This document shows, one piece after another, positions 1 to 45,624 of a DNA stretch of 45,624 nucleotides. The stretch is from the UHGV virus genome UHGV-0133287; one strand, given 5' to 3'. The notes beneath the pieces are model-generated. The model was not told the origin of the DNA. It saw nothing but the letters and a program-made list of their open reading frames with translations, and ran no database searches. A program made the translations under genes and the position numbers. Positions within the stretch are counted from its first letter, which is position 1; every line of letters starts with the position of its first letter. The DNA is from a virus.

Positions 1-1501
1 TTTTAAATCCAATCTTCGCCAAGTCAGTATTTCGAATCCAGGCAAGGATTGAGTCATTTTCAAAAGTAAGCCCACCGGACAAAGTATCGCCATTTTTTTG
101 CACGGCGTTACCAGCCCTGTTTACCGTTTCCTGTAAACCGAGGTATTCGATAACGGCGGCAACGGTCGATTTCGCAAGAATATCCCGCCCGACTTTTGTC
201 AGAGTTGCCAGGCTGGCGACATCATTCCCCGTAAAATACGGAAACCTGTCTGCCGCAGTAGCAAGCCCGGCCAGCGCCGTCAGGGTGGCATCTTTCGGTT
301 GCTTACCCGCAAGCGCGTTAGTCATGGTGGTCGCAAAATTCGGGTCGTTTCCCAGCGCCGCCGCTAACTCGTTCAGCGTATTCAGTGCGTCAGGTGACGA
401 ATCTACAAGGGCGGCAATCGCAGCCATAACATAAGCCGTGCTTGCGATCTGAGTATTGTTAGTACCTTTTGGCGCAGTTGGTGTTGTTGGTGTTCCGGTC
501 AGCGCCGGACTGTTCAGGGGCGCTTTCTTGTTCGTTTCATCCATTACCACCTTTACAGCTTTCGATGTCGCGGCCAGTGTTTCAGACGTGCTGTTGGTGG
601 CACTACTGAGCTGAGTTATTCCCCTTACAGTCAGTGAAGCTACAGGCACATTTGTTATCTGCTCCCACGAATGCGTGTGATTGGACGGAGCCTTTCCGGC
701 CGCAAGATCATACGCTGCCTTAACAGCCTTTGGTGTTGCTGCCAGCGTTTCAGACGTGCTGTTGGTGGCACTACTGAGCTGAACAATCCCTTTTCGCGCT
801 GTGGTAGCGTCCTGTGCGGTGTATTTAGCATTAGCCAGGTCATATGCTGCCTTAACAGCCTTAGGCGTCGCAGCAAGCGTTTCAGACGCGCTATTGGTGG
901 CGCTGCTAAGTTGAACAAAGCCTTTTGAGGTTAAAGTTGCATCAGGATGATTACGTGATTGCTCATGTTTCACAATGGCTTGCTTAAGCCGTTTTGCTGA
1001 AACAGCAAGGGAATCATCTGTACCTGCATCAATTTCTTGTTCATTAGCAAATCTTGCCACCCCAACAACAGTTTCGGTCGCGGGAGGATTAATAAACTCA
1101 ATATCACCAAATGTAATATTTTTAGTATCAAGAGTTTTAATTGCTATATCACTTGATATTAAAGCGATAGTAGATGATGCTTTATTTATTATTGCTTGTT
1201 CTTGTGAGTATACAGCAAACAACGTACCCTTATTCGTATACAATCCTATTGTATGGACAACATACTCATCTTTACTATCATCCTTCGCTGTTACATGAAT
1301 TGTATCAGGGGAAACAACTTTGCCACCTATTGTGGTAAGTCGTTTTATTTCGTTTGTTATATTTGTTTGTGAAGTTGACGTGACATAATATCTACTACCT
1401 AAACCAACAGAAACAATCTCAACTTTATTTGTTCCTGTTTTGTTGGCATTAACCAGCTCCTGACGCCCGGCGTCAGTCATCGTAAATAATAATTTACTCA
1501 C
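1..1501 (-). CDS. tail fibre protein, constant N-terminal part (3' end runs off window start)
   Basis: Minus-strand ORF absent from the ORF track because it has no in-window stop. Start is GTG 1501 (AAGGA 7 nt upstream) or ATG 1480. My translation contains three tandem ~50-aa repeats GIVQLSSATNS(T/A)SETLAATPKAVKAAYDLA, typical of phage tail-fibre repeat domains. It follows the baseplate I-like gene. Confidence 0.75.
   Translation of the reverse strand, partial: MSKLLFTMTDAGRQELVNANKTGTNKVEIVSVGLGSRYYVTSTSQTNITNEIKRLTTIGGKVVSPDTIHVTAKDDSKDEYVVHTIGLYTNKGTLFAVYSQEQAIINKASSTIALISSDIAIKTLDTKNITFGDIEFINPPATETVVGVARFANEQEIDAGTDDSLAVSAKRLKQAIVKHEQSRNHPDATLTSKGFVQLSSATNSASETLAATPKAVKAAYDLANAKYTAQDATTARKGIVQLSSATNSTSETLAATPKAVKAAYDLAAGKAPSNHTHSWEQITNVPVASLTVRGITQLSSATNSTSETLAATSKAVKVVMDETNKKAPLNSPALTGTPTTPTAPKGTNNTQIASTAYVMAAIAALVDSSPDALNTLNELAAALGNDPNFATTMTNALAGKQPKDATLTALAGLATAADRFPYFTGNDVASLATLTKVGRDILAKSTVAAVIEYLGLQETVNRAGNAVQKNGDTLSGGLTFENDSILAWIRNTDLAKIGFK
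125..150. other. gix/hix-like invertase crossover site inside the tail-fibre gene
   Basis: Minus-strand sequence TCGAATACC-TC-GGTTTACAGGAA resembles the Mu gix half-sites as I recall them. A similar copy in inverted orientation lies at 45367-45392 next to the invertase gene. It encodes LGLQET in the fibre reading frame. Confidence 0.5.
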
Positions 1502-5840: not shown

Positions 5841-8625
5841 AACTTAATCTCCGTTGTTGGAACATATGAGCACTCAATTTCTTCTCAAAATCAGAATATC
5901 CCGCATCTAATGCTCTTTTAGCTGCCGCCTCAGTTTTCTTTGGTGAACCAGCCGGAAGATTGATTACAGGTGAATAGGTTATTCCACCAGTCACAGCATT
6001 AACGTTCTGGCGAGGTCCAGAAGTCCCGGCGGCAGATATCCCGTGAGGTGATAAATTTGATTGCCCGAACTTGGTTGCTATTGCATTCTGTAAGCTGTTA
6101 TTTCTGCTAACGCCTGATGCCAGAGTAGTCATTATTGCACCACCTGACTTTGTTAGCTGTGAGAATGGACCTTTTTTCGCGTCAGAGAACGGTAAATACT
6201 CACGTACAGAAGAAAAAACGCCTTTCACTTCATTAATTAAAGCATTTGCTTTTGATTTTATCCCAGTGATTAACGTCTCAATTATTTTTGCGCCTGACTC
6301 ACTCCAGTTTATTCCAGACAAATAAGCCGTTACAGATTGGAATGCTCTTATAAAGAGTCCAACTGGTGAAAAACGCATAAAAACAGATACCAGTGTATCT
6401 ATGATTTTCTTTCCTGTTTCGCTCCAGTTAATACCAGAAAGGTAATTTGTTGTAAGTTTAAATGCTTTAATTAAGAACGGAAGCGGAGACATCCATTTAA
6501 AAGCACTAATTAATGTACTGTAAATTCTTACTCCTGCCGAACTCCAGTTTATGTTGGAAAGATAATCCCATGCTTTACCAAACATAGATATAATCCATCC
6601 ATTGAGATCAAAGTTTAAGATAAAGTTTTTTATAGCTTCAAACGATTTAACTGTATATTCCTTAACAGAAGGCCAAACTCTGACAGCATAATCTCTGATC
6701 TTATCCCAGTTCTGATAGAGCAATATTCCTGCGGCAACCAGCGCAGATATAGCCATCTGAATCCACCCGAAGGGTGTTAGCTTTGTCGCTACAGATAAAG
6801 CCAGCATAGCTACCCTACACGCTATAACCACACTTTTCATGGTTAGAAACGCACCTGCCGCCATCACAATCTGAGACACAAAATTGGGGTTGTTAGCTAC
6901 AAATTCACTAATTTTTGTAATCAGCGGAACCAAAACACTAAGCGCGGCATTCAAAGCAGGTTGCAAGGCCTGACCAAAACTTAATGATGCATTGCTAGCC
7001 TGAATACGTAATTGTTTCAATCGCTCCGCATTGTCTTTCGTTATGTTGGCAAAATCGCGGTCAATAACAGCACTTCCAGCACCAAGAGATGTTGCTTTGA
7101 TTCTCTGGTATTCCTTCCAGTTTTGAATCATCGGACGAACAAAGTTCTGAACCTGCATATCGCCAAATAGCTCACCAAGTAACTTCTGATCTCCGTTCTT
7201 AGTCATTTTCATGACAGAATGCATTGCAGCTTCGAATGGATTCTTCCCTTTTTTCTGCGCTGTTGTGACAATTTTATATAAATCTACACCGAAATTTTTC
7301 TTTGCTTTTTTTAGTGTTTCAGGGGAAAGTATTTTCGCCAAAAAGTTGTTCATATTATTAGCAGCCTCATCCGAAGTTGCAGCACCTTTGCGAGCTATCT
7401 GCAAAGCTGCCCCCATCGTCGCGGCGGCTTCTTTACCTCCCATTTTTAATGCCTGGAACTGAGCACCAAGCACAGGAAGATTTTTGGCCATATCTTTAAA
7501 TTCAAAGTTTCCCTCTTTCCCTGCCTGAACCAGAATCCCCATTGCAGACTTCATTTGAGATGGATCAATCTTCAATGAGTCACTTAATGTAAATGATGCT
7601 TTCGAGACATCGAGGATATCAGAGCCAGTAGCTGTAGCTGTTCGCCCAATAGTTAGTAGATTCGCCTGAGCCTCTTTATAATCCTGCCCAGCAGCGACGA
7701 GAAAACCCTGAGCGGCCTGAATATCAGATGCAAACTGGTTGGTGGCCGTTCCGGTAACAAGCATCGCCTGCCCCATCGCCTGAACTTCTTCTGGCTTCAT
7801 ATCTGCCGTAAGACCAATCATTTTGTTTTCACGATTGAAATTTGCTGCATTGTTAGCAGCAGCAAATGCACCAGCCGCTACAGCACCAGTTTGTAATCCT
7901 GACCTTACAAGTTGACTCTTTGCCTCACCAAGATGCTCTCGCTTCAATTCACGCTGCCTTTCCAACGCGCGGTTTAACTCCTCCTGAGCACGTTTTACTG
8001 CAAGAACATTTTTCCGTGCTTCAGCCAACGCATTTTTATAGCTGTTAATTTTATCAATACGTTGTTTTTCTAATGCCCGGTTAAGTTCCTCCTGCTGTTT
8101 TTTCACTTGCTGAACATTTGCTCTGGCTAAAGCCAAAGCCGTTCTGTAGCGGTTAACCTGCTCAACGCTACGGACCTGAGCCTCACGATTACGATCAATG
8201 CTGGCTTTAAGCTCTTTCTCTCTTGAGGCCAAAGCTCTGGCAGATGTATCAGCTCCCTGATAGGCAGACTTTAAAGCGGCCAGTTCTTCACGCTGAGAAC
8301 GTAGTGATGCTCGTAAATTCGATGAATGTGTTTTTGCCTTCTCAAAGTCACGAAGCATCGCTCTGGTTGGATTGGCCGTGTTTTTTATTTGCTTCTGTAA
8401 CTCTTCAACGCGAGCGGCAGCTTTATGATATTCGAGGGCAGTCTGTCCAACCTTTACTTTTACAGATTGTAGCTTTTGAATTTCCCCATGTTCTTTCGTT
8501 AATCCAGCAAGCTCGGCATTTAATTTAGCAACAGCCTGATTAGCTGTAGTAAAACTTTTGGGGAGAGAGGCGGCAACTTTGCCGCCAATTTCAAAAGCCA
8601 GCTTAAAGTTCTTATTGCTGGCCAT
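5833..8625 (-). CDS. tail tape measure protein
   Basis: 930-aa ORF directly after the frameshifted chaperone pair; N-terminal half is Ala/Lys/Glu-rich coiled-coil-like with repeated segments, C-terminal half has hydrophobic stretches. Confidence 0.8.
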   Translation of the reverse strand: MASNKNFKLAFEIGGKVAASLPKSFTTANQAVAKLNAELAGLTKEHGEIQKLQSVKVKVGQTALEYHKAAARVEELQKQIKNTANPTRAMLRDFEKAKTHSSNLRASLRSQREELAALKSAYQGADTSARALASREKELKASIDRNREAQVRSVEQVNRYRTALALARANVQQVKKQQEELNRALEKQRIDKINSYKNALAEARKNVLAVKRAQEELNRALERQRELKREHLGEAKSQLVRSGLQTGAVAAGAFAAANNAANFNRENKMIGLTADMKPEEVQAMGQAMLVTGTATNQFASDIQAAQGFLVAAGQDYKEAQANLLTIGRTATATGSDILDVSKASFTLSDSLKIDPSQMKSAMGILVQAGKEGNFEFKDMAKNLPVLGAQFQALKMGGKEAAATMGAALQIARKGAATSDEAANNMNNFLAKILSPETLKKAKKNFGVDLYKIVTTAQKKGKNPFEAAMHSVMKMTKNGDQKLLGELFGDMQVQNFVRPMIQNWKEYQRIKATSLGAGSAVIDRDFANITKDNAERLKQLRIQASNASLSFGQALQPALNAALSVLVPLITKISEFVANNPNFVSQIVMAAGAFLTMKSVVIACRVAMLALSVATKLTPFGWIQMAISALVAAGILLYQNWDKIRDYAVRVWPSVKEYTVKSFEAIKNFILNFDLNGWIISMFGKAWDYLSNINWSSAGVRIYSTLISAFKWMSPLPFLIKAFKLTTNYLSGINWSETGKKIIDTLVSVFMRFSPVGLFIRAFQSVTAYLSGINWSESGAKIIETLITGIKSKANALINEVKGVFSSVREYLPFSDAKKGPFSQLTKSGGAIMTTLASGVSRNNSLQNAIATKFGQSNLSPHGISAAGTSGPRQNVNAVTGGITYSPVINLPAGSPKKTEAAAKRALDAGYSDFEKKLSAHMFQQRRLSFG

Positions 8626-8630
8626 TAGTA

Positions 8631-8813
8631 TTAATCCTCATTAAACACATCAATCCATGCGACGATTCGCCTCAACCGAAGCGAAAGCCAGTAGGATATA
8701 GGTGTTGATTGAGATGATTGAGATAGAGAACTCGCGGCCCTCATTATTTGCTTATCAATAGGTTTTTGCTCATCAAAACCTACGAGAGCAAAAAATTCTG
8801 TACCTTTTGACAA
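8631..8813 (-). CDS. tail assembly chaperone -1 frameshift extension (gpE+E'/GT-like)
   Basis: ORF in the -1 frame overlapping the 3' end of 8780-9061. After a -1 slip at TTTTTTG the reading continues FFALVGFDEQKP..., which matches this ORF's translation. Its own ATG is probably not used. Confidence 0.5.
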   Translation of the reverse strand: MSKGTEFFALVGFDEQKPIDKQIMRAASSLSQSSQSTPISYWLSLRLRRIVAWIDVFNED

Positions 8814-9061
8814 ACTTTAATAAAGTCTTTCGCTGGCAATCCATTCAGATACTCTATTGGACGGCCAATACAGCGAGCAGCCAAGGCTGCATGGACTTTA
8901 TTATCAAGTGATGTTTGAACTGAAACATGCCCTTGAGATTGCAGTAAGTCCGATACCTCTAAAATATCACTGCCTTTTAGGTTGTCTAAATCAAGGTTGA
9001 GTTCAGTCACCGGCTCAAAGTCTTCAAAACGATATTCTTTACTTAATTTAACGGTTTCCAT
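8780..9061 (-). CDS. tail assembly chaperone (gpE/G-like, frame-0 product)
   Basis: 93-aa ORF between the tail tube and tape measure genes; carries the T_TTT_TTG slippery heptamer (minus strand, 8789-8795) near its 3' end. Confidence 0.55.
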   Translation of the reverse strand: METVKLSKEYRFEDFEPVTELNLDLDNLKGSDILEVSDLLQSQGHVSVQTSLDNKVHAALAARCIGRPIEYLNGLPAKDFIKVCQKVQNFLLS

Positions 9062-9070
9062 TTTGTCACC

Positions 9071-9592
9071 TTATAAACCTAAATCATCACGAACGCTTTT
9101 TAATATATCTTCACCATCAAAGATACAAATAAAGTTCAACTTATCAATTTCCAAGACTTCTTTTCCATCAATAAATAATTTGATATAGAGAACTTCAAAT
9201 TCATTCTCTGAATCAGTAGCCTTTGCCACCTGTAGCGAACCTAAATCCAGTTTTTTAGGGTTTAGCTTCATTGAAGCCCGAATAGGAACCGTTTTATATT
9301 TTCCTGTTCCTGCATCATAAACCTGCTGGCTACCGCGAAAATCTACCTGATGCGATGAGGATAGAAATAATTTTGTACCAGCAGAGGTCAGAGTTCGCCA
9401 TTTAAGAGAGACAGTCATTGGTTTGAAATGCCCCAGCGTTCCGCTCTCAAGCTCTCCAGCGATACCTGCACCACTAACAGTTTCTGTCATCATCTCAATT
9501 GATGGCAGCTTTGCGTCAGCAACACCGATAATACGGTTTCCCTCACCGTATACTGTAAAGTTAATAAGTCTCTCAGGAATTTGATTGCTCAA
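9071..9592 (-). CDS. tail tube protein (FII-like)
   Basis: 173-aa ORF immediately downstream of the sheath gene; size and position typical of contractile-tail tube proteins. Confidence 0.65.
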   Translation of the reverse strand: MSNQIPERLINFTVYGEGNRIIGVADAKLPSIEMMTETVSGAGIAGELESGTLGHFKPMTVSLKWRTLTSAGTKLFLSSSHQVDFRGSQQVYDAGTGKYKTVPIRASMKLNPKKLDLGSLQVAKATDSENEFEVLYIKLFIDGKEVLEIDKLNFICIFDGEDILKSVRDDLGL

Positions 9593-9608
9593 AGCAACCT
9601 CCTATTAT

Positions 9609-11072
9609 TTATTCAGAAAACAAGTTCAGCAGATAATCAGGATTATATTCCATGACGAACTCTATATCTCTGGCAGGTGAGAATGGTGTCATTTTTACAT
9701 GGAATTTAACAATCCCGTCCATCAATGACGTAATCGTGTTTTCAGACTGATCAAAGGTAACAACACCACCTGCAATATCCTGATTACCTGTGAGGCCGTT
9801 AAGCCAAATATTCGCACTTGTAACAATCGATTCAATTAATCGTCGGTTTGCAGGATTGTCTATTTTTGACCAATGCGAAAGAATTAACGTATTACCCACC
9901 CAGTTAAACATACGTCGGCAAACACGAAATGCGTCTTTGGGGTCTGTAGATGTTGGATAAATAGCATTACGATTTCCCCATGATTTCCAACCATCAAAAT
10001 TAAGGCTTGTTACAATCCCCTGTCCATTTAAGTAGTTTGCCTGGCTAATGTTAAGCCATACTTCACTGCCATCTTTACGTACAGCACCGTCCATCTGTAG
10101 TTTTATATTTGACGGAGAACGTGATGGAATATCACCATACTGACTATCCAGCAAGCATGTTGCGGCCGCTAAATGGGTTGAGTGATGGTAAATATTGTCA
10201 CCAAGTTTCACCATCGGCCAGCACACTGTCTGGTTAGCGGCCATGTGATTATTGTTCTGTTTCCATTCAGGAACAGCCGAGTAATCACTGATAGTAGATT
10301 TATCGGTCGGTGCATCAGTTATGGCTTCTGCTTTGAACAATTCACTAATCAACGCGGCTTTAGCCGCCATTAGCTGACCAACTTCACTATCAGAACTAAA
10401 TCCAGGCGCAATCACTTGTCCAGGAACCAACTTGAAGCGGGGATACACATCAGACAGTAACTCAAGCCCTGTATTGGCTTTAGTGTTGGAATCCACACCA
10501 CCGATAATGTCATTTTTAGTTACGGCACCGGGATCAAGATGCGTATAACTAACCTTAAGAGTAGCGTCTTTTTCGGTAATTTTTCCTCCGCTAATAGCGG
10601 TAATGACCGTATAGCCATTATCATCCAGCGCCAGCACATAATCGGTATCAACCGTTAATCCTGCCGAATCACCATCTGCTTTTTTCACAACAACAGATTT
10701 ATATAAGACACCATCGTTAGAGAGCGTACCTTTCCCGCCAGAAAGTTTTACTACCTCATCAGTTACGTCTTTCTTATGCTTTGCTGGATCAAGCACATTA
10801 ATAAATACAACTGGCGCAACACCATATATTCCAAATGCGACTTTAATTACTTCGCTTAAAGTATATTTCTCGAAGTTTGTGCTATATCCTATTTTAGATA
10901 CGGCCTCTGCGTATGTATAAGCAATGATAGGTTTATTTACCGCTGAGGCTGGATCTTCTAACTGATTAACAGGAGCTGTACCAAATGCGACAATCAACCC
11001 AGCACTAACTTGTACTGGAGGAGTTATAGATGTAGCCAGCTCAGATATATAAATACCGTGGCGATATCCCAT
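9609..11072 (-). CDS. tail sheath protein (FI-like)
   Basis: 487-aa ORF opening MGYRHGIYISE..., a characteristic sheath N-terminus; followed by the tube gene. Confidence 0.8.
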   Translation of the reverse strand: MGYRHGIYISELATSITPPVQVSAGLIVAFGTAPVNQLEDPASAVNKPIIAYTYAEAVSKIGYSTNFEKYTLSEVIKVAFGIYGVAPVVFINVLDPAKHKKDVTDEVVKLSGGKGTLSNDGVLYKSVVVKKADGDSAGLTVDTDYVLALDDNGYTVITAISGGKITEKDATLKVSYTHLDPGAVTKNDIIGGVDSNTKANTGLELLSDVYPRFKLVPGQVIAPGFSSDSEVGQLMAAKAALISELFKAEAITDAPTDKSTISDYSAVPEWKQNNNHMAANQTVCWPMVKLGDNIYHHSTHLAAATCLLDSQYGDIPSRSPSNIKLQMDGAVRKDGSEVWLNISQANYLNGQGIVTSLNFDGWKSWGNRNAIYPTSTDPKDAFRVCRRMFNWVGNTLILSHWSKIDNPANRRLIESIVTSANIWLNGLTGNQDIAGGVVTFDQSENTITSLMDGIVKFHVKMTPFSPARDIEFVMEYNPDYLLNLFSE

Positions 11073-11362
11073 TATTTAATCTCCATGATAGAAGAAGAAA
11101 CTCTAGAGTACATTACATACTCGACACTGGTTTTATCAGAAAGTCTTTTTTCTGCATCTGCAAAATCACTGGTTGCCACAAACAAACACTTTGCACCAGG
11201 AATATGTGATATTAATTTTTCACACTCTGGAGATAAACCATTCTTAAATAGTTTATGCTTCAAAATTGAGAGTTGAGGGATTGTTGGTCCTATATATACA
11301 AATGTTTGAGCAACATCTTCCTTCTTTTCTATATCTTCTTTACTACTTTTCTTATTAGCCAT
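11072..11362 (-). CDS. hypothetical protein (head-tail joining region)
   Basis: 96-aa ORF between capsid and sheath genes; no motif recognised. Confidence 0.3.
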   Translation of the reverse strand: MANKKSSKEDIEKKEDVAQTFVYIGPTIPQLSILKHKLFKNGLSPECEKLISHIPGAKCLFVATSDFADAEKRLSDKTSVEYVMYSRVSSSIMEIK

Positions 11363-11848
11363 TTAGATAAACTCCTGAGACTGAATATTCTGAGGCTTTA
11401 ATACTAGCCACGTTCCAGTTGCTTCCGTTATCCAATATGGATATGGTTGATCATCAAACATTCGCCATCTGATATCACCCTGAAAGAGAAATTTCTCTTC
11501 AAGTAAAGGCTTCTCCTGAAAATGAAACATCATCCTTTCAAGAAGAGCCATTACCCATTCATATCCAGTATGGTCCTCACAAAAACCACCTAGAAGAAAC
11601 TTAACCTTAACTTCATCCGTTTCAGGCTGCATTCCTCCTTCCGTGGGTCTGATGATCACATGAGGAAATTCTGGCGGTTTATCTGGAGATGGTTGTGATT
11701 TAGGAGGCAAGTACCCTTTAAATATTGTTGGAACAAACAATTTAATATCGCTGTCTGTTTCATCATAAGGAGGCCCCTGCACTAATAAATCATGGAAAAG
11801 CTCATGTTCCAACCGATTTTTTATTGCATCTATCAAAAGATTAATCAA
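11363..11848 (-). CDS. hypothetical neck/tail completion protein
   Basis: 161-aa ORF in the head-tail connector region; function by position only. Confidence 0.3.
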   Translation of the reverse strand: MINLLIDAIKNRLEHELFHDLLVQGPPYDETDSDIKLFVPTIFKGYLPPKSQPSPDKPPEFPHVIIRPTEGGMQPETDEVKVKFLLGGFCEDHTGYEWVMALLERMMFHFQEKPLLEEKFLFQGDIRWRMFDDQPYPYWITEATGTWLVLKPQNIQSQEFI

Positions 11849-12189
11849 ATCGGCATTCCTCTGTTAGTATTAACAGTGAGAGTTATTTCCAATACACCAA
11901 CATTATCTGATACTTCATCAACAATATAATTTTTACCGTTGATTTTCATTGACTGGTCTTTGACAGGGATAACAGGAAAATCTTTTCTTGAAACAAATAA
12001 TATTATTTGTCCCTGATTTATTCCCTCTGCAAACTCAGCATATGAGCGTTTATTACGCTCATGAATAAGGTCTGTATCAATAACGGCAAGGATATCCTTG
12101 CCGTCTATGTTATATGTATCGGCAAACTCTTTTTCATTGAGGAATATTGCAGAAATATCTTGCGCTATAACCTCTTTGAAGGAGTTCAT
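11845..12189 (-). CDS. hypothetical head completion protein
   Basis: 114-aa ORF with 4-bp overlaps to both neighbours in the connector region. Confidence 0.3.
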   Translation of the reverse strand: MNSFKEVIAQDISAIFLNEKEFADTYNIDGKDILAVIDTDLIHERNKRSYAEFAEGINQGQIILFVSRKDFPVIPVKDQSMKINGKNYIVDEVSDNVGVLEITLTVNTNRGMPI

Positions 12190-12581
12190 TACTTCTTATT
12201 ACCTTTTTTTTGCGTTGATTTTTTCGCATTACTGGTATCAGAAGTAGCTACAGATTCAGATGAATCATCAGCAACCATTTCCTCATTGCCGCCATCATCC
12301 TCAAACTCAACCTCGAATACACAGCTACCCGCCTCCGTTCGCGTAATCAACCCCGCGTCCACAGCATCATTAACAGCAGATGCGTATCCGTGCTCAAAAG
12401 CTAACTTAGCAGCATCATAGCCCCCAGCCGATGCCAAATCACCATCCTCTTCGGTGGCAATAGCATGTCCTGACGCAATCAGTTCGGCAATTCTGGAGTT
12501 ATCCATTAGCCCATTAAGCAAACGGCCCGCTTTTAGCGAGCCGTGGCTTATCGTATCGATGTTTTTAACCAGTCTGGCCAT
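12189..12581 (-). CDS. hypothetical protein with acidic C-terminus
   Basis: 130-aa ORF directly after the major capsid gene; C-terminus is Asp/Glu/Ser-rich then Lys-rich. Confidence 0.3.
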   Translation of the reverse strand: MARLVKNIDTISHGSLKAGRLLNGLMDNSRIAELIASGHAIATEEDGDLASAGGYDAAKLAFEHGYASAVNDAVDAGLITRTEAGSCVFEVEFEDDGGNEEMVADDSSESVATSDTSNAKKSTQKKGNKK

Positions 12582-26267: not shown

Positions 26268-26343
26268 TGGTGGCCCCTACCGGATTTGAACCGATGACCG
26301 TGCGATTATGAGTCGCCTGCTCTAACCACTGAGCTAAGGGGCC
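26268..26343 (-). tRNA. tRNA with CAU anticodon (Met or lysidine-type Ile2)
   Basis: 76-nt minus-strand sequence GGCCCCTTAGCTCAGTGGTTAGAGCAGGCGACTCATAATCGCACGGTCATCGGTTCAAATCCGGTAGGGGCCACCA folds by hand into a cloverleaf: 7-bp acceptor stem, GCTC/GAGC D-stem, CUCAUAA anticodon loop, TTCAAAT T-loop, encoded CCA. The 5' half resembles E. coli ileX as I recall it. Confidence 0.8.
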
Positions 26344-26512
26344 ATATTTGATTTGTTTGTCTGGTGTGGCGCCGCGCACGAAAATCCCAGCCAATAAATT
26401 CAGGATTTTTGGGCGCGGCGGCATATCAGACAAACATGGTTGATGCGTGCGCCCATGAGAAAAGCGCATAGAATGTTGTAACTATATATTTATATAATTA
26501 TAGAAATATATA

Positions 26513-32436: not shown

Positions 32437-32557
32437 CAGATTTCTCCGGTTTAACCAGGGCGGGTATCGCTCGGTTTCGGGTATAACCTTAGGAAATTTT
32501 TTCCCACCTGTAAAGCACTTTTTATATAAATCTATAATTATATATTTATAGATTTTC
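32437..32557 (-). promoter_or_regulatory. conserved promoter/leader cassette, copy B (directly downstream of the Q-like gene)
   Basis: Near-identical to copies A and C over about 110 bp; begins 49 bp downstream of the Q-like gene stop. Confidence 0.5.
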
Positions 32558-36254: not shown

Positions 36255-36389
36255 CTGCAAGCGGGCTAACGCCCGCTTATATGATTATAGATTTATATAA
36301 TTATATAAAACGCTTTTCATCCGCCAAAAAGTTGGTTATGCTTACCTCGTTCTATAAATATAGATTTATAGAATTATATAATCAAACAC

Positions 36390-37562: not shown

Positions 37563-37586
37563 ATAAAAAAGGCCCCCGAAGGGGCC
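37563..37586 (-). terminator. intrinsic terminator (minus-strand; convergent transcription stop)
   Basis: GGCCCC-CGAA-GGGGCC hairpin preceded on the plus strand by an A run, giving a U run on the minus strand. Confidence 0.45.
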
Positions 37587-38456
37587 TAATCGCTACTTGC
37601 TGCTAATGTTTATCGTCACATTCAGAGCGTTATCAGTAATCTTCCAACCCTCCCCATGTGGCGTAAACAAAGCTCCAGTAACAACGATAAAAATACACAT
37701 ACAGTATTTTTTCATTGTGTGGCCCTTACAGGCCGTTTCACGGCATCTCCACCGACGAAAATGACGCGAGAGCAAGCACTCCGCTTGTGCTTGCGTGTAC
37801 GGCAAGTGGATGATCCTTTCCTTAAAGTCGGTGCCCGGGTGCGAATCGGCGAAAAGGCCCCAAGCCATATTACACGTCCTCGCCTTCATAATGAAGGAAT
37901 AACAATTGCTTTTATTACATGTAATTACATCCGAAGAAGTTAAAAAACTTCATTCTGCATGAACTAAGGAACTAAATTTCTTTATATGAATAGTGGACTA
38001 TTCACCTCAGTTGAGTAAGAATAGATACGCCGCTTGTGCTTGCGTGGTTGTTTACACAACGACGTTATGCTGAAAGGACCGCGAATCCGATCAGCACGAA
38101 AGAACCGTCCTCAATAGGGCGGTTTTTTTGTTTCTGCCTACCAATAAACCCACGCTATGTGGTTGTCTCTGTTAAAATCCCGCCGTATTGACATGAATGC
38201 GCCATTGGTGGACACTTTCCGAGCCGTAGCAAAATCTACGGTCGGGATTGGCGTCCCGATTGCACAATGGCGCATACCGCGTTAGCGGTTTTTTTATGCG
38301 TAAAGCACTGCTACACCCGAATTATGGTGGGGCGTGCGGGGGCGGAGAAATCCGCGCCGGTTTGTCATTGTGCCGGTTACGCCAACCCTGTACGTCTCAC
38401 CACCATATTGATTGGCGTCATTGGTGGTGATAGTTCCTTTAATCGGAGATATCACA

Positions 38457-41476: not shown

Positions 41477-41776
41477 TCAGATGTTAAACGCTATTCTTTT
41501 TCCTGTGGGAAGCTCAACATCCAGGCTTAATTTGCCTCCCATAGCTTCAACGTAACGCTTTAATGTCGCCAGCTTTAAATCATTTCCGCGCTGCTCCAAC
41601 TTTGTTACTGCTGGCTGACTAATACCCATCGCCTCAGCAACCTGTTTTTGTGATAACTGGAGTTCTTCACGCATCATCTGCAAGCCGACCTCAAGAATCA
41701 TCTCATCTGCCATTTCTTTAATTCGCGCCTGGCTTTCCGGTGAACGGCTGGCAATCACCTCATCTAATGTTCTCAT
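41477..41776 (-). CDS. HTH-type antitoxin (HigA/XRE-like)
   Basis: 99-aa ORF with HTH LSQKQVAEAMGISQPAVTKLEQ; start overlaps the upstream toxin-like gene stop. Confidence 0.55.
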   Translation of the reverse strand: MRTLDEVIASRSPESQARIKEMADEMILEVGLQMMREELQLSQKQVAEAMGISQPAVTKLEQRGNDLKLATLKRYVEAMGGKLSLDVELPTGKRIAFNI

Positions 41777-42129
41777 TACTTGCTCTCCAGTGTGTTCAGA
41801 TGTGCTGCAAACTCATCCTCAGCTATACGCACCAGTTTTTTATAAAACCGCTTATCGTTACTTTTGTCTCCTGCACAAAGAACGATAGCCCGGCGAATCG
41901 GATCGAACGCATAAAAGGCTCTTATAGGACGGCCAGAAAACTGAACGCGAAGCTCTTTCATATTTTTGTACCGAGAACCTTTTACGGTATCGGCATATGG
42001 CCTGGGTAACTCAGGCCCGTAAACCTGTAGATTTTTCAAATCAGCCAAAACCTTTTCCTGAAGAGCGTCTTCTTGCTCATTTAGCCAGTCGTCAAATCGC
42101 TGGCTAAAAAGTACCGTCCACATGATCAA
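41776..42129 (-). CDS. RelE/ParE-superfamily toxin (Gp49/HigB-like)
   Basis: 117-aa ORF upstream of and overlapping the HTH gene, the toxin-first order of HigB-HigA-type modules; sequence pattern resembles Gp49-like killer proteins. Confidence 0.5.
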   Translation of the reverse strand: MIMWTVLFSQRFDDWLNEQEDALQEKVLADLKNLQVYGPELPRPYADTVKGSRYKNMKELRVQFSGRPIRAFYAFDPIRRAIVLCAGDKSNDKRFYKKLVRIAEDEFAAHLNTLESK

Positions 42130-43585: not shown

Positions 43586-44563
43586 TTAATGTTGGAGTGA
43601 TTTCCAAGTCTTTCTTAACCTGTTATAACGCTGCTCAACGAGGGATCGTAAATATGCAAGGTCAGCTCCAGGATACATGCCATCAGCAAATTCCTGGCTA
43701 ACCTCTCTAGTGATTTGATGACGAAGTTCGGCCTCTCCCTTTTCCCGAACAAGACGCGCAGCTCTCTCCGCTGCTTTCTGTTTTGCCTTTATCTCTCTGG
43801 CCGTCTTCCTCTGACGCCATACATTCTCCATCTGCTCCTGAATAACAATACGCTTATAATCAGCCTCCGTTATCGCTTTTTTAAGCCGTTCGCTATTCTT
43901 CGCATTGAAGTAATTAAGTTTCTGGCTAACCGCACGTCTCCATGCTTGTTCAGTAATACCAACGGTTTCCAGCAGTTGATCACGAATCTCTATTTTCGCT
44001 GGCCAATACTGTTTATTCACCCGATCCCAGCGACGTTCATAATCAATAAAACCTAACGCTTTCAGTTGCGACAACGCCCTTGTACAGCGCGTTATAGACT
44101 TGTTCCCAGCTTCGGATACGGTAGACAGACCGCAAAAATCAGCCAACGCCTCAGCACTGGCCAGAACCCGCTTAGAAATGATGTTTACATGGTGCAAAAT
44201 CGCAGCAATCACAGCATTAATCGCCCGACGACGATGCTCGTTTATCCGGCGTTTCCGCTCTGACGGTTGATTAACGTAGAACGCAACCTCACACGTAAGA
44301 TCACGACCATTAATGCGCTGTAAAGCATCAGATAACACCAGCGGCAGCTTGTGCGTATGGTGCTTTGGAGGCTGGAACTCCGGCGACAAATTACAAACGT
44401 AAGCTGAACGTAGAGACGGCATTGGTCTATCCATATGTTCGCTCTTGCGTCCACGGAAAACCAACGTATAATGGGAGTTGTCGAGGCGCCCATGGTTAAT
44501 TGTTGGTTTTCCGTGGATGTCGCAAGAAGCCCGCAGATTTATCTGCGGGCTTTTTGTTTCCAT
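43586..44563 (-). CDS. repA: replication initiator RepA (IncFII RepA1-like)
   Basis: The central region (GLSTVSEAGNKSITRCTRALSQLKALGFIDYE) resembles IncFII RepA1 (...SITRATRALTFLSELGLITYQTEYD...) as I recall it. The true start may be the internal ATG at 44434 (MDRPMPSL, about 283 aa), because the first 43 codons overlap a putative antisense RNA and hairpin. Confidence 0.75.
   Translation of the reverse strand: METKSPQINLRASCDIHGKPTINHGRLDNSHYTLVFRGRKSEHMDRPMPSLRSAYVCNLSPEFQPPKHHTHKLPLVLSDALQRINGRDLTCEVAFYVNQPSERKRRINEHRRRAINAVIAAILHHVNIISKRVLASAEALADFCGLSTVSEAGNKSITRCTRALSQLKALGFIDYERRWDRVNKQYWPAKIEIRDQLLETVGITEQAWRRAVSQKLNYFNAKNSERLKKAITEADYKRIVIQEQMENVWRQRKTAREIKAKQKAAERAARLVREKGEAELRHQITREVSQEFADGMYPGADLAYLRSLVEQRYNRLRKTWKSLQH
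44479..44560 (+). ncRNA. candidate CopA-like antisense RNA to the repA leader
   Basis: Plus-strand promoter -35 TTGCGT (44445-44450), 16-bp spacer, -10 TATAAT (44467-44472), then about 80 nt ending in a perfect 12-bp hairpin AAGCCCGCAGAT-TT-ATCTGCGGGCTT plus TTTGTTT (44527-44560), antisense to the repA 5' region. Confidence 0.5.
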
Positions 44564-44598
44564 ATCTGGTCGCTTTCCAACCAGACACCCACAATCAT

Positions 44599-44615
44599 AA
44601 CCACGTTACGTGGTT
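44599..44615. promoter_or_regulatory. 17-bp palindrome upstream of repA
   Basis: AACCACGT-T-ACGTGGTT perfect inverted repeat in the repA promoter-proximal region. Confidence 0.3.
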
Positions 44616-44744
44616 TTAAGAGAACTCTACCACAACACTTTCGGTCATGCACGAAGTCTCTCACTGATCGAACGATAATCCACCAGTAAAAGGATCTAAA
44701 TTGGATCTCGTTTTGCGAGCATCATACTACTGGCCTAACTCCAG

Positions 44745-45299
44745 TCAATGATTCCCAGCCGGAAACCTGCGGTAAAGCGTGGATAAGGTAACATCGAAGA
44801 TAATCGCTATCCGCTTACGTGAAACACCATTCGCAATAAGCCTTCCGATCTGTTCCCATTGCTCTGGTGCCAGCTTTGAGCGGCGTCCTCCTATCCTGCC
44901 GTTAGCCCTTGCCACCGCCAATCCTGCACGCGTTCTTTCAATCATATTTTCCCGCTCCATCTCTGCGACTGCACTCAGCATCGTGTAGGCAAAGCGGCCA
45001 ATTGAAGTGCTAATTTTTATCCCTTCCGTAATCGAAATAAACTCAATGTCGTTTGATAAAAAATGGTTAAGTAAATCAACAAGATGAATCAGAGAACGCC
45101 CCATTCGGTCCAGCTTCCAGACAATAACCGTATCGCCCGGTCGTAACACCTTCAGTAGCTTATCAAGTCCTGGTCGTTTTGATTTAGCACCGGATATTTT
45201 ATCTTCAAAAATCCGGTCACATCCTGAACTCCTGAGCGCCTCCAGTTGTAATTCCAAATTCTGGTCAAAAGTTGACACCCTCGCATAACCATATTGCAT
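44745..45299 (-). CDS. serine recombinase, DNA invertase (Gin/Hin/Cin/Pin family)
   Basis: 184-aa ORF opening MQYGYARVSTFDQNLELQLEAL..., with the conserved catalytic Ser region and a C-terminal HTH; strongly resembles Gin. Confidence 0.85.
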   Translation of the reverse strand: MQYGYARVSTFDQNLELQLEALRSSGCDRIFEDKISGAKSKRPGLDKLLKVLRPGDTVIVWKLDRMGRSLIHLVDLLNHFLSNDIEFISITEGIKISTSIGRFAYTMLSAVAEMERENMIERTRAGLAVARANGRIGGRRSKLAPEQWEQIGRLIANGVSRKRIAIIFDVTLSTLYRRFPAGNH

Positions 45300-45308
45300 A
45301 CTTTCTAA

Positions 45309-45624
45309 ACCACGATTGTTGCTAAAAGCGGGAAAAAATATCGTTCAGACGACACAGAGGCAATTCGCAAAAACCTCGGTTTGCAGGAAACGATAAACAA
45401 GGCTTCTGGCGCATTACAGAAAAACCAGAACGGCGCAGATATTCCTGGAAAAGATACCTTCACCAAAAATATTGGTGCCTGCCGCGCATATAGCGCATGG
45501 GTGGATATTGGTGGCGATAGTCAGGTCTGGACAACTGCGCAATTTATTTCGTGGCTGGAGAGTCAGGGGGCATTTAACCATCCTTACTGGATGTGCAAAG
45601 GCTCATGGGCTTATGCAAATAATA
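45309..45624 (+). CDS. alternative tail-fibre C-terminal segment, start-less (runs off window end)
   Basis: Open frame with no ATG/GTG start from the stop at 45306-45308 to the window end; encodes ...AIRKNLGLQETINKASGALQKN..., paralleling the ...EYLGLQETVNRAGNAVQKN... junction of the fibre gene at the window start on the opposite strand. Confidence 0.55.
45367..45392. other. gix/hix-like invertase crossover site
   Basis: GCAAAAACC-TC-GGTTTGCAGGAA, an inverted copy of the 125-150 site; 68 bp from the invertase start codon. Confidence 0.5.

Follow-up and report, generated by a model that had tools for sequence, protein, structure and literature searches.

A likely invertible tail-fibre switch of the Gin/Cin type on a ~48-kb RepA phage-plasmid

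The virus genome UHGV-0133287, a stretch of 45,624 nucleotides that was analysed over its full length and is called the window here, ends in a gene for a DNA invertase followed by an open frame that resembles the C-terminus of a tail fibre. A preliminary description of this end had read the frame as the silent cassette of an invertible segment of the Mu G or P1 C type, which raises the question of whether the locus belongs to a functional host-range switch and where the remainder of that switch is located. Very likely, the element is a RepA phage-plasmid of ~48 kb that carries an invertible tail-fibre segment of the Gin/Cin type, and the region studied here is the end of this segment next to the invertase. 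The preliminary description covered half of the switch, and the partner site and the expressed fibre gene were found at the other end of the window (Table 1). In the orientation that was captured, the constant part of the fibre is joined to a P2 H-like tip, and a Mu S'-like tip lies silent beside the invertase.

Table 1 Positions of the predicted switch components and of the anti-repressor gene in the window.
Feature	Position	Strand	Remarks
Expressed variable fibre part (Sv, type C, P2 H / Mu S-like), first 46 codons	1-139	-	truncated by the window start
Fibre-side crossover site, 26 bp	128-153	+	26/26 identical to published bixL; 24/26 match to gix
Tail-fibre constant part (Sc)	142-1501	-	Phage_fiber_2 repeats (Pfam, E 1.6e-58)
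ORF6N/anti-repressor gene, 380 aa	38645-39787	+	
DNA invertase gene, 184 aa	44745-45299	-	small serine recombinase, Din (Gin/Cin/Hin/Pin) group, divergent 'GRFAYT' helix-E clade
Candidate Fis-dependent recombinational enhancer	45215-45277	-	predicted; 5' end of the invertase gene
Invertase-side gix-like crossover site, 26 bp	45364-45389	-	22/26 match to gix
Silent fibre C-terminus cassette start (Sv', type B, Mu S'-like)	45378-45624	+	truncated by the window end

Invertase, crossover sites and fibre tips

The recombinase at the right end of the window combines an N-terminal catalytic Resolvase domain (Pfam, E 3.6e-44) with a C-terminal HTH_7 domain (E 2.9e-13) and was assigned to PHROG 125, 'DNA invertase'. 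It aligns to Mu Gin without gaps at 55% identity and is 55.7% identical to P1 Cin. When solved structures were searched with the protein, two Gin structures were the best matches (E 1e-61), compared to E-values of about 1e-30 for the gamma-delta and Tn3 resolvases. The residues R7, S9 (the active-site serine), D64, R65 and R68 are invariant in the invertase alignment. The Pfam domains, the identity to Gin, the structure matches, the PHROG assignment and the catalytic residues thus uphold the earlier classification of the protein as a Gin/Hin-type invertase. A search of NCBIfam with the protein yielded no specific model, every match being far under its cut-off. We additionally observed that the exact protein is present in 820 blocks of a public assembly collection. 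The longest contig bearing it measures 2-5 kb in 320 of these blocks and 20-50 kb in 311, a split which suggests that short-read assemblies often break around the invertase locus.

The two crossover sites were aligned to the published 26-bp gix and bix sites (PMC3241671, Table 3), among which the bixL sequence of the Shigella boydii B segment is listed. On the minus strand, the invertase-side site reads TTCCTGCAAACC GA GGTTTTTGCGAA, with its core dinucleotide (TC on the plus strand) at 45376-45377, while the fibre-side site reads TTCCTGTAAACC GA GGTATTCGATAA on the plus strand, with its core at 140-141, and is located inside the expressed fibre ORF. The sites are in inverted orientation and share the identical central dinucleotide GA/TC, and their outer half-sites differ from each other. 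A search with the 21-bp gix core pattern, allowing up to three mismatches, returned just two matches in the 45.6-kb window, one on each strand (126-146 and 45371-45391), and none in 100 shuffles of the window sequence. These two matches also anchor the longest inverted repeat of the window. A wider scan for dix-type sites (up to 6 mismatches over 26 positions), which covered the window and each relative locus with a complete segment, revealed no site besides the two. The preliminary description had placed a gix-like site at 45367-45392, 68 bp from the invertase gene. The site itself was recovered, but it lies 3 bp upstream of that position, and the spacer between it and the invertase ATG at 45299 is 64 bp. 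In the comparison to Mu gix and P1 cix that had been suggested earlier, 24 and 22 of the 26 positions match gix, whereas only 15 to 21 match the cix sites, which have an AA core.

The expressed fibre gene starts with a GTG at 1501 that is preceded by AAGGA and agrees with the annotated CDS start in the Yersinia phage vB_YpM_41. It extends on the minus strand from 1501 to 1, where the window start cuts it off, and its translation contains ...AAVIEYLGLQETVNRAGNAVQKNGDTLSGGLTFENDS.... Used as a query, the first 420 bp of the window showed 98% identity to fibre genes in P88 and in Citrobacter phage Shae_phiSM and 94% to P2 H. At the other end, the plus-strand frame is open from 45309, after a stop codon at 45306-45308, to the window end and reads ...RKNLGLQETINKASGALQKNQNGADIPGKDTF.... 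No ATG, GTG or TTG was found between this stop codon and the crossover site, and the first ATG is at 45591. The DNA of the silent cassette is 95-97% identical to the start of S' in Mu, SfMu and D108, and the Mu record annotates the matching region as 'carboxyl terminal end of tail fiber protein (S') in G(-) phage'. The frame also matches PHROG tail-fibre families, and its equivalent in relatives is annotated as 'phage tail protein, missing N-terminus'. The claim of a fibre-like C-terminus without a start codon was therefore confirmed, both by the lack of a start before the site and by the identity to the S' DNA of the three phages. Both frames, silent and expressed, read ...LGLQET... through the crossover site in the same register, and the predicted recombinant junction of constant part and silent tip is in frame (...AAVIEYLGLQETINKASGALQKN... 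/ ...STVAAVIEYLGLQETINKASGALQKN...).

Inversion in near-identical elements and the missing interior of the segment

A first case comes from two independent complete plasmid assemblies of E. coli ATCC 25922, CP009073.1 and CP158444.1, which are both 48,488 bp long. Their flanks are 99.9% identical, and the 3,071 bp between the sites are inverted. An A/G polymorphism in the inner half-site (position 7) is carried along by the inverted segment, and the outer half-sites keep their places, which indicates that the exchange takes place at or near the core of the site. The invertase of this plasmid differs from that of the window by two residues. A third record of the strain (NZ_CP032086.1, 94,204 bp) contains three places that match the repA-invertase query and may represent a multimer or a misassembly.

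A second case is provided by pFDN11_2, which is 98% identical to the window over the aligned flanks and up to 99.2% identical near repA and the invertase gene. It carries both cassette starts of the window in swapped positions, with the Mu S'-like tip on the fibre and the P2 H-like tip beside the invertase. In 126 E. coli genomes, the recombinant junction lies within one contiguous fibre gene that is annotated as such, compared to 357 genomes with the parental junction. The invertase-side site of the window coincides with the inversion breakpoint in the relatives. The segment thus flips in vivo in near-identical elements, with breakpoints exactly at these sites. The inverted sites with their common core, the frame that is shared across them and the occurrence of both orientations in relatives together bear out the reading of the start-less frame as a silent cassette of the Mu G / P1 C type.

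The relatives share one layout, in which the fibre gene is followed by a chaperone gene, an opposed chaperone gene, an opposed silent tip, the invertase gene and repA. For nine relatives, the gene table was read over a complete segment, and each of these tables lists opposed Caudo_TAP genes; the loci of the other relatives were checked for sites only. By typing the first ~118 bp inside each site at 17 loci, we distinguished six types of cassette start in various pairings, and types B and C were each seen on either side of the segment. Such variety, together with an interior that lies outside the window, would also fit multi-site shuffling of the kind known from Min of p15B or from shufflons, with extra sites in the missing part. 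This is very improbable, since all 15 relatives that were inspected have exactly two sites (up to 6 mismatches to gix over 26 bp) and show a layout of two cassettes and two chaperones. The sites are 2.9-3.1 kb apart in these relatives, with pZ0117EC0148-4 (6.7 kb) as the exception.

We also considered that the protein might act as a plasmid multimer resolvase beside repA, the inverted fibre sites being an incidental homology derived from Mu- and P2-like fibre genes. The gene is 181 bp away from repA on a plasmid replicon, and NCBI labels the proteins of the relatives merely as 'recombinase family protein'. Several observations argue against this role, which we judge to be hardly plausible: the Gin structures match far better than the resolvases, the Fis-contact residues specific to invertases are conserved (see below), no directly repeated res-like site was found in the window, where both dix-type matches are inverted, and the inversion breakpoints of the relatives fall exactly at these matches.

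Both ends of the window fall within the invertible segment, of which ~140 bp are present at the left end and ~248 bp at the right end. Joining the two ends yields no sensible ORFs, and from this we conclude that the interior is missing. A closed circle with a tiny segment was accordingly rejected, as the joined minus frame stops after 4 codons (...KIGFKILFA, then the stop) and the plus frame reads into antisense. Judged by the spacing of the window ends in pFDN11_2, the missing interior amounts to ~2.66 kb, and by comparison with the relatives it would comprise the rest of both fibre tips and two chaperone genes. A single transposon insertion as the cause of the break was rejected as well, given that the window ends are 2.66 kb apart, and not adjacent, in pFDN11_2.

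A locked or defective relic is an alternative reading of these ends. In such an element, the interior would have been deleted or disrupted or the invertase would be silent, and the fibre would be fixed in its P2 H-like form. The absence of the interior from the window and the early stop in the joined fibre ORF are in line with this, and so is the closest complete relative, pZ0117EC0148-4 (98.9% identical), which carries Tn5403 in its silent cassette. In this plasmid (CP098182.1), the Tn5403 transposase and its resolvase are located at 8605-12232 within the silent fibre cassette, and the insertion, 65-95 bp past the point that corresponds to the window end, has stretched the spacing of the sites. 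The molecule studied here could carry an insertion in its interior in the same way. A promoter and terminator scan of 44500-45624 additionally found no sigma-70-like promoter upstream of the invertase gene, including the 64-bp spacer, which is a further point for a silent invertase; the same scan noted a promoter-like site at 44748-44721 on the minus strand that points toward repA. Against the relic stand the intact invertase ORF with all of its catalytic residues and the two intact sites, as well as the size of the element, since the window plus the gap gives ~48.3 kb and matches the complete relatives (48-49 kb). Moreover, segment-like sequences occur in up to 7 copies per E. coli genome, in other prophages, and such repeats would be enough to make an assembly break at this point. 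A break of a short-read assembly inside the segment is therefore a simpler reason for the absent interior than a locked relic, which we regard as unlikely.

Candidate Fis enhancer and the divergent invertase clade

In the mechanism that we propose for the invertible segment, dimers of the invertase would bind the two crossover sites and then synapse. Cleavage at the central GA/TC dinucleotide and subsequent strand exchange would flip the ~3-kb segment, by which the constant part would be fused in frame to the other tip, with the matching chaperone gene now downstream. The receptor specificity of the phage would change with the swap of the fibre tip. Activation probably requires host Fis, bound to a two-site enhancer within the first 85 bp of the invertase gene.

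A search for such an enhancer in the 5' end of the gene had been suggested earlier. Two Fis-like 15-mers were found, TGTCAACTTTTGACC at 45263-45277 and GTTCAGGATGTGACC at 45215-45229 (nucleotides 23-37 and 71-85 of the gene), the centres of which are 48 bp apart. Both overlap strongly conserved codons and fit the degenerate consensus (G/T)NNYRNN(A/T)NNYRNN(C/A), which reportedly goes back to Hübner and Arber (1989). Mu gin and P1 cin have consensus-fitting 15-mers at the corresponding nucleotides, where their Fis sites would lie. The core of the second 15-mer, CAGGATGTGA, is identical in the window invertase gene, gin and cin, synonymous positions included. From the centre of the proximal 15-mer to that of the gix site, the distance is 106.5 bp in the window compared to 96.5 bp in Mu and P88, a difference of 10 bp or about one helical turn.

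The enhancer of Hin, as described by McLean et al., is ~65 bp long and has a Fis site at each end, with centres 47 bp apart, at a distance of ~100 bp from hixL (PMC3798978). Our assignment follows these positional criteria (PMC3798978) and the consensus given above, in a region that also encodes the conserved active site. The findings are consistent with a candidate Fis-dependent enhancer at this position: the search did return two 15-mers, and what speaks for them is positional homology and a degenerate consensus.

Residue numbers of Hin and Gin are offset by one. In Hin, Fis is contacted by Gln151, Arg154 and Leu155 (PMC3798978). The window invertase has the corresponding residues, Q150, R153 and L154, which are nearly invariant across the alignment.

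Other regulatory residues deviate from those of the studied invertases. Helix E reads GRFAYTMLSA in the clade to which the window invertase belongs, compared to GRFFFHVMGA in Gin, Cin and P88, and residues 103-111 of the window protein are FAYTMLSAV, compared to FFFHVMGAL in the studied enzymes. Ala104, Tyr105, Thr106 and Leu108 thus occupy the positions of F105, F106, H107 and M109 in Hin, where the single changes F105A, F106Y and M109L were inactive, weak or toxic (PMC4513852, Tables 1-2). An intermediate form, 'FTFH', is present in other invertases. In helix B, the enhancer is contacted by Lys47, Lys/Arg48 and Lys/Arg51 of Hin, the first of which is 'always a lysine' in 15 invertases (PMC3798978). 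The window protein has Asp46, Lys47 and Lys50 here, so that two of the three basic residues are kept, and all members of the clade have either Asp or Asn where Hin has Lys47.

A database search with the invertase returned 6,873 proteins at E <= 1e-30, and the clade is formed by just the closest of these, which are ~68-99% identical. This enterobacterial clade is populous, and proteins from P1-like plasmids of ~95 kb, from Citrobacter chromosomes and from Shigella boydii are among its members. As the ATCC 25922 plasmid demonstrates, the clade inverts in vivo despite the substituted helix-E residues. Gix-type sites and the Fis-contact patch appear to have been kept, while the phenylalanine switch and the helix-B lysine were replaced, at positions where single changes leave Hin dead, toxic or deregulated. 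Since these regulatory residues differ from those of Gin, Cin and Hin, Fis dependence cannot be assumed. A tentative and, in our estimate, rather doubtful explanation is that the replaced residues have co-evolved into another way of controlling tetramer formation and enhancer use in this clade, which could include a relaxed dependence on Fis or an altered switching rate.

Comparison with known switches and the host element

The mechanism of the switch has been textbook knowledge since Mu, P1 and Hin, and the system described here is of a known kind. In layout, it matches the Mu G segment, which likewise has a crossover site inside an ORF, opposed chaperone genes, a silent tip without a start codon and an invertase gene that lies outside and is transcribed away from the segment. 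At 3.06 kb, it is also of similar length to the segments of the window's relatives. The GA core is common to the Mu gix sites and those of the window, and the start of the silent cassette shows ~95% DNA identity to Mu S'. Gin differs from the window invertase at the regulatory residues of helix B and helix E, and Mu is a transposing phage, whereas the window element is a RepA plasmid-prophage. The P2-like phage P88 (Xuanwuvirus) has the same types of cassette start, with C active and B silent, and a constant fibre end that is 98% identical. It differs in that the site beside its invertase gene is bixR and that its Gin-like invertase has the canonical motif 'FFFH', whereas the window has the outer half-site GGTTTTTGCGAA and an invertase of the 'FAYT' clade. 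With the B segment of Shigella boydii (PinB, bixL/bixR), the window shares the complete fibre-side site.

The C segment of P1 and P7 (Cin) is comparable in another respect, since P1 likewise resides in the cell as a plasmid-prophage and uses a Din-family invertase, acting on fibre tips, to switch its host range. In the P1-type phages P7, RCS47 and JL22, part of the fibre gene (S) is 97-99% identical to the start of the window's silent cassette. The differences concern the orientation of the invertase gene, as cin is transcribed toward the segment and the window invertase gene away from it, and the element itself, P1 being about twice the size and the window element having P2-like baseplate genes. 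With one tip homologous to P2 H / Mu S and the other to Mu S', the two orientations in the window's family would be expected to give different host ranges.

The element as a whole is a phage-plasmid with an IncFII-type RepA and P2-like baseplate genes. Its relatives are the Yersinia phages vB_YpM_39, vB_YpM_41 and vB_YpM_44 and many ~48-kb plasmids of E. coli, E. fergusonii, E. albertii, Klebsiella aerogenes and Salmonella. Around the switch, they are 96-99% identical to the window over the compared regions (up to ~11 kb, except for the ATCC 25922 plasmid), and their invertases are 98-99.5% identical. The three Yersinia phages, the ATCC 25922 plasmid and pFDN11_2 belong to the same element family and have the same switch layout, but differ in cassette pairs and orientation. 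Their GenBank records do not mark the locus as a switch and use the labels 'hin', 'recombinase family protein' and 'incomplete phage tail protein'. Assignment of the window to the phage-plasmid family of pSLy3 was rejected, pSLy3 being a member of the SSU5 supergroup. Among the papers that were searched, none covers vB_YpM_39, and the sole vB_YpM paper concerns the Mu-like phages 3, 5, 6 and 23.

Further features were noted outside the switch. The IncFII-type repA, which adjoins the invertase gene, is at 43586-44563 on the minus strand, and a RelE/HigB-type toxin with an HTH antitoxin is encoded at 41477-42129 on the same strand. Rfam models matched an isrK RNA and a C4 antisense RNA at 38223-38407 on the plus strand, directly upstream of the ORF6N/anti-repressor gene, an arrangement that resembles the immI (c4-ant) immunity module of P1 and P7. 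A full-length match to ryfA RNA (135 bits) was found at 37565-37862 and a tRNA-Met (CAT) gene at 26268-26343, both on the minus strand. We also found 11 copies of a 20-bp AT-rich motif, TATAAATCTATAATTATATA, on both strands between 25 and 41 kb, where 0.02 would be expected (up to 3 mismatches allowed). The occurrences are dispersed and partly clustered (~25350, 26483-26510, 31316, 32525-32550, 36278, 36351-36378, 37059 and 41403), and the motif could mark repressor operators or phage-specific promoters.

The switch would explain why the contig ends where it does, as the invertible segment contains both of its ends and has further copies among prophages, and it explains why annotation pipelines place an 'incomplete tail protein' beside a 'recombinase'. 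The divergent regulatory residues of the invertase are the sole aspect that goes beyond the textbook and may be of research interest; overall, the practical value of the finding exceeds its conceptual value. A widespread family of ~48-kb phage-plasmids would carry a working host-range switch with exchangeable fibre-tip cassettes. The family includes phages isolated on Yersinia pestis, and the switch bears on how far such plasmid-phages can spread.
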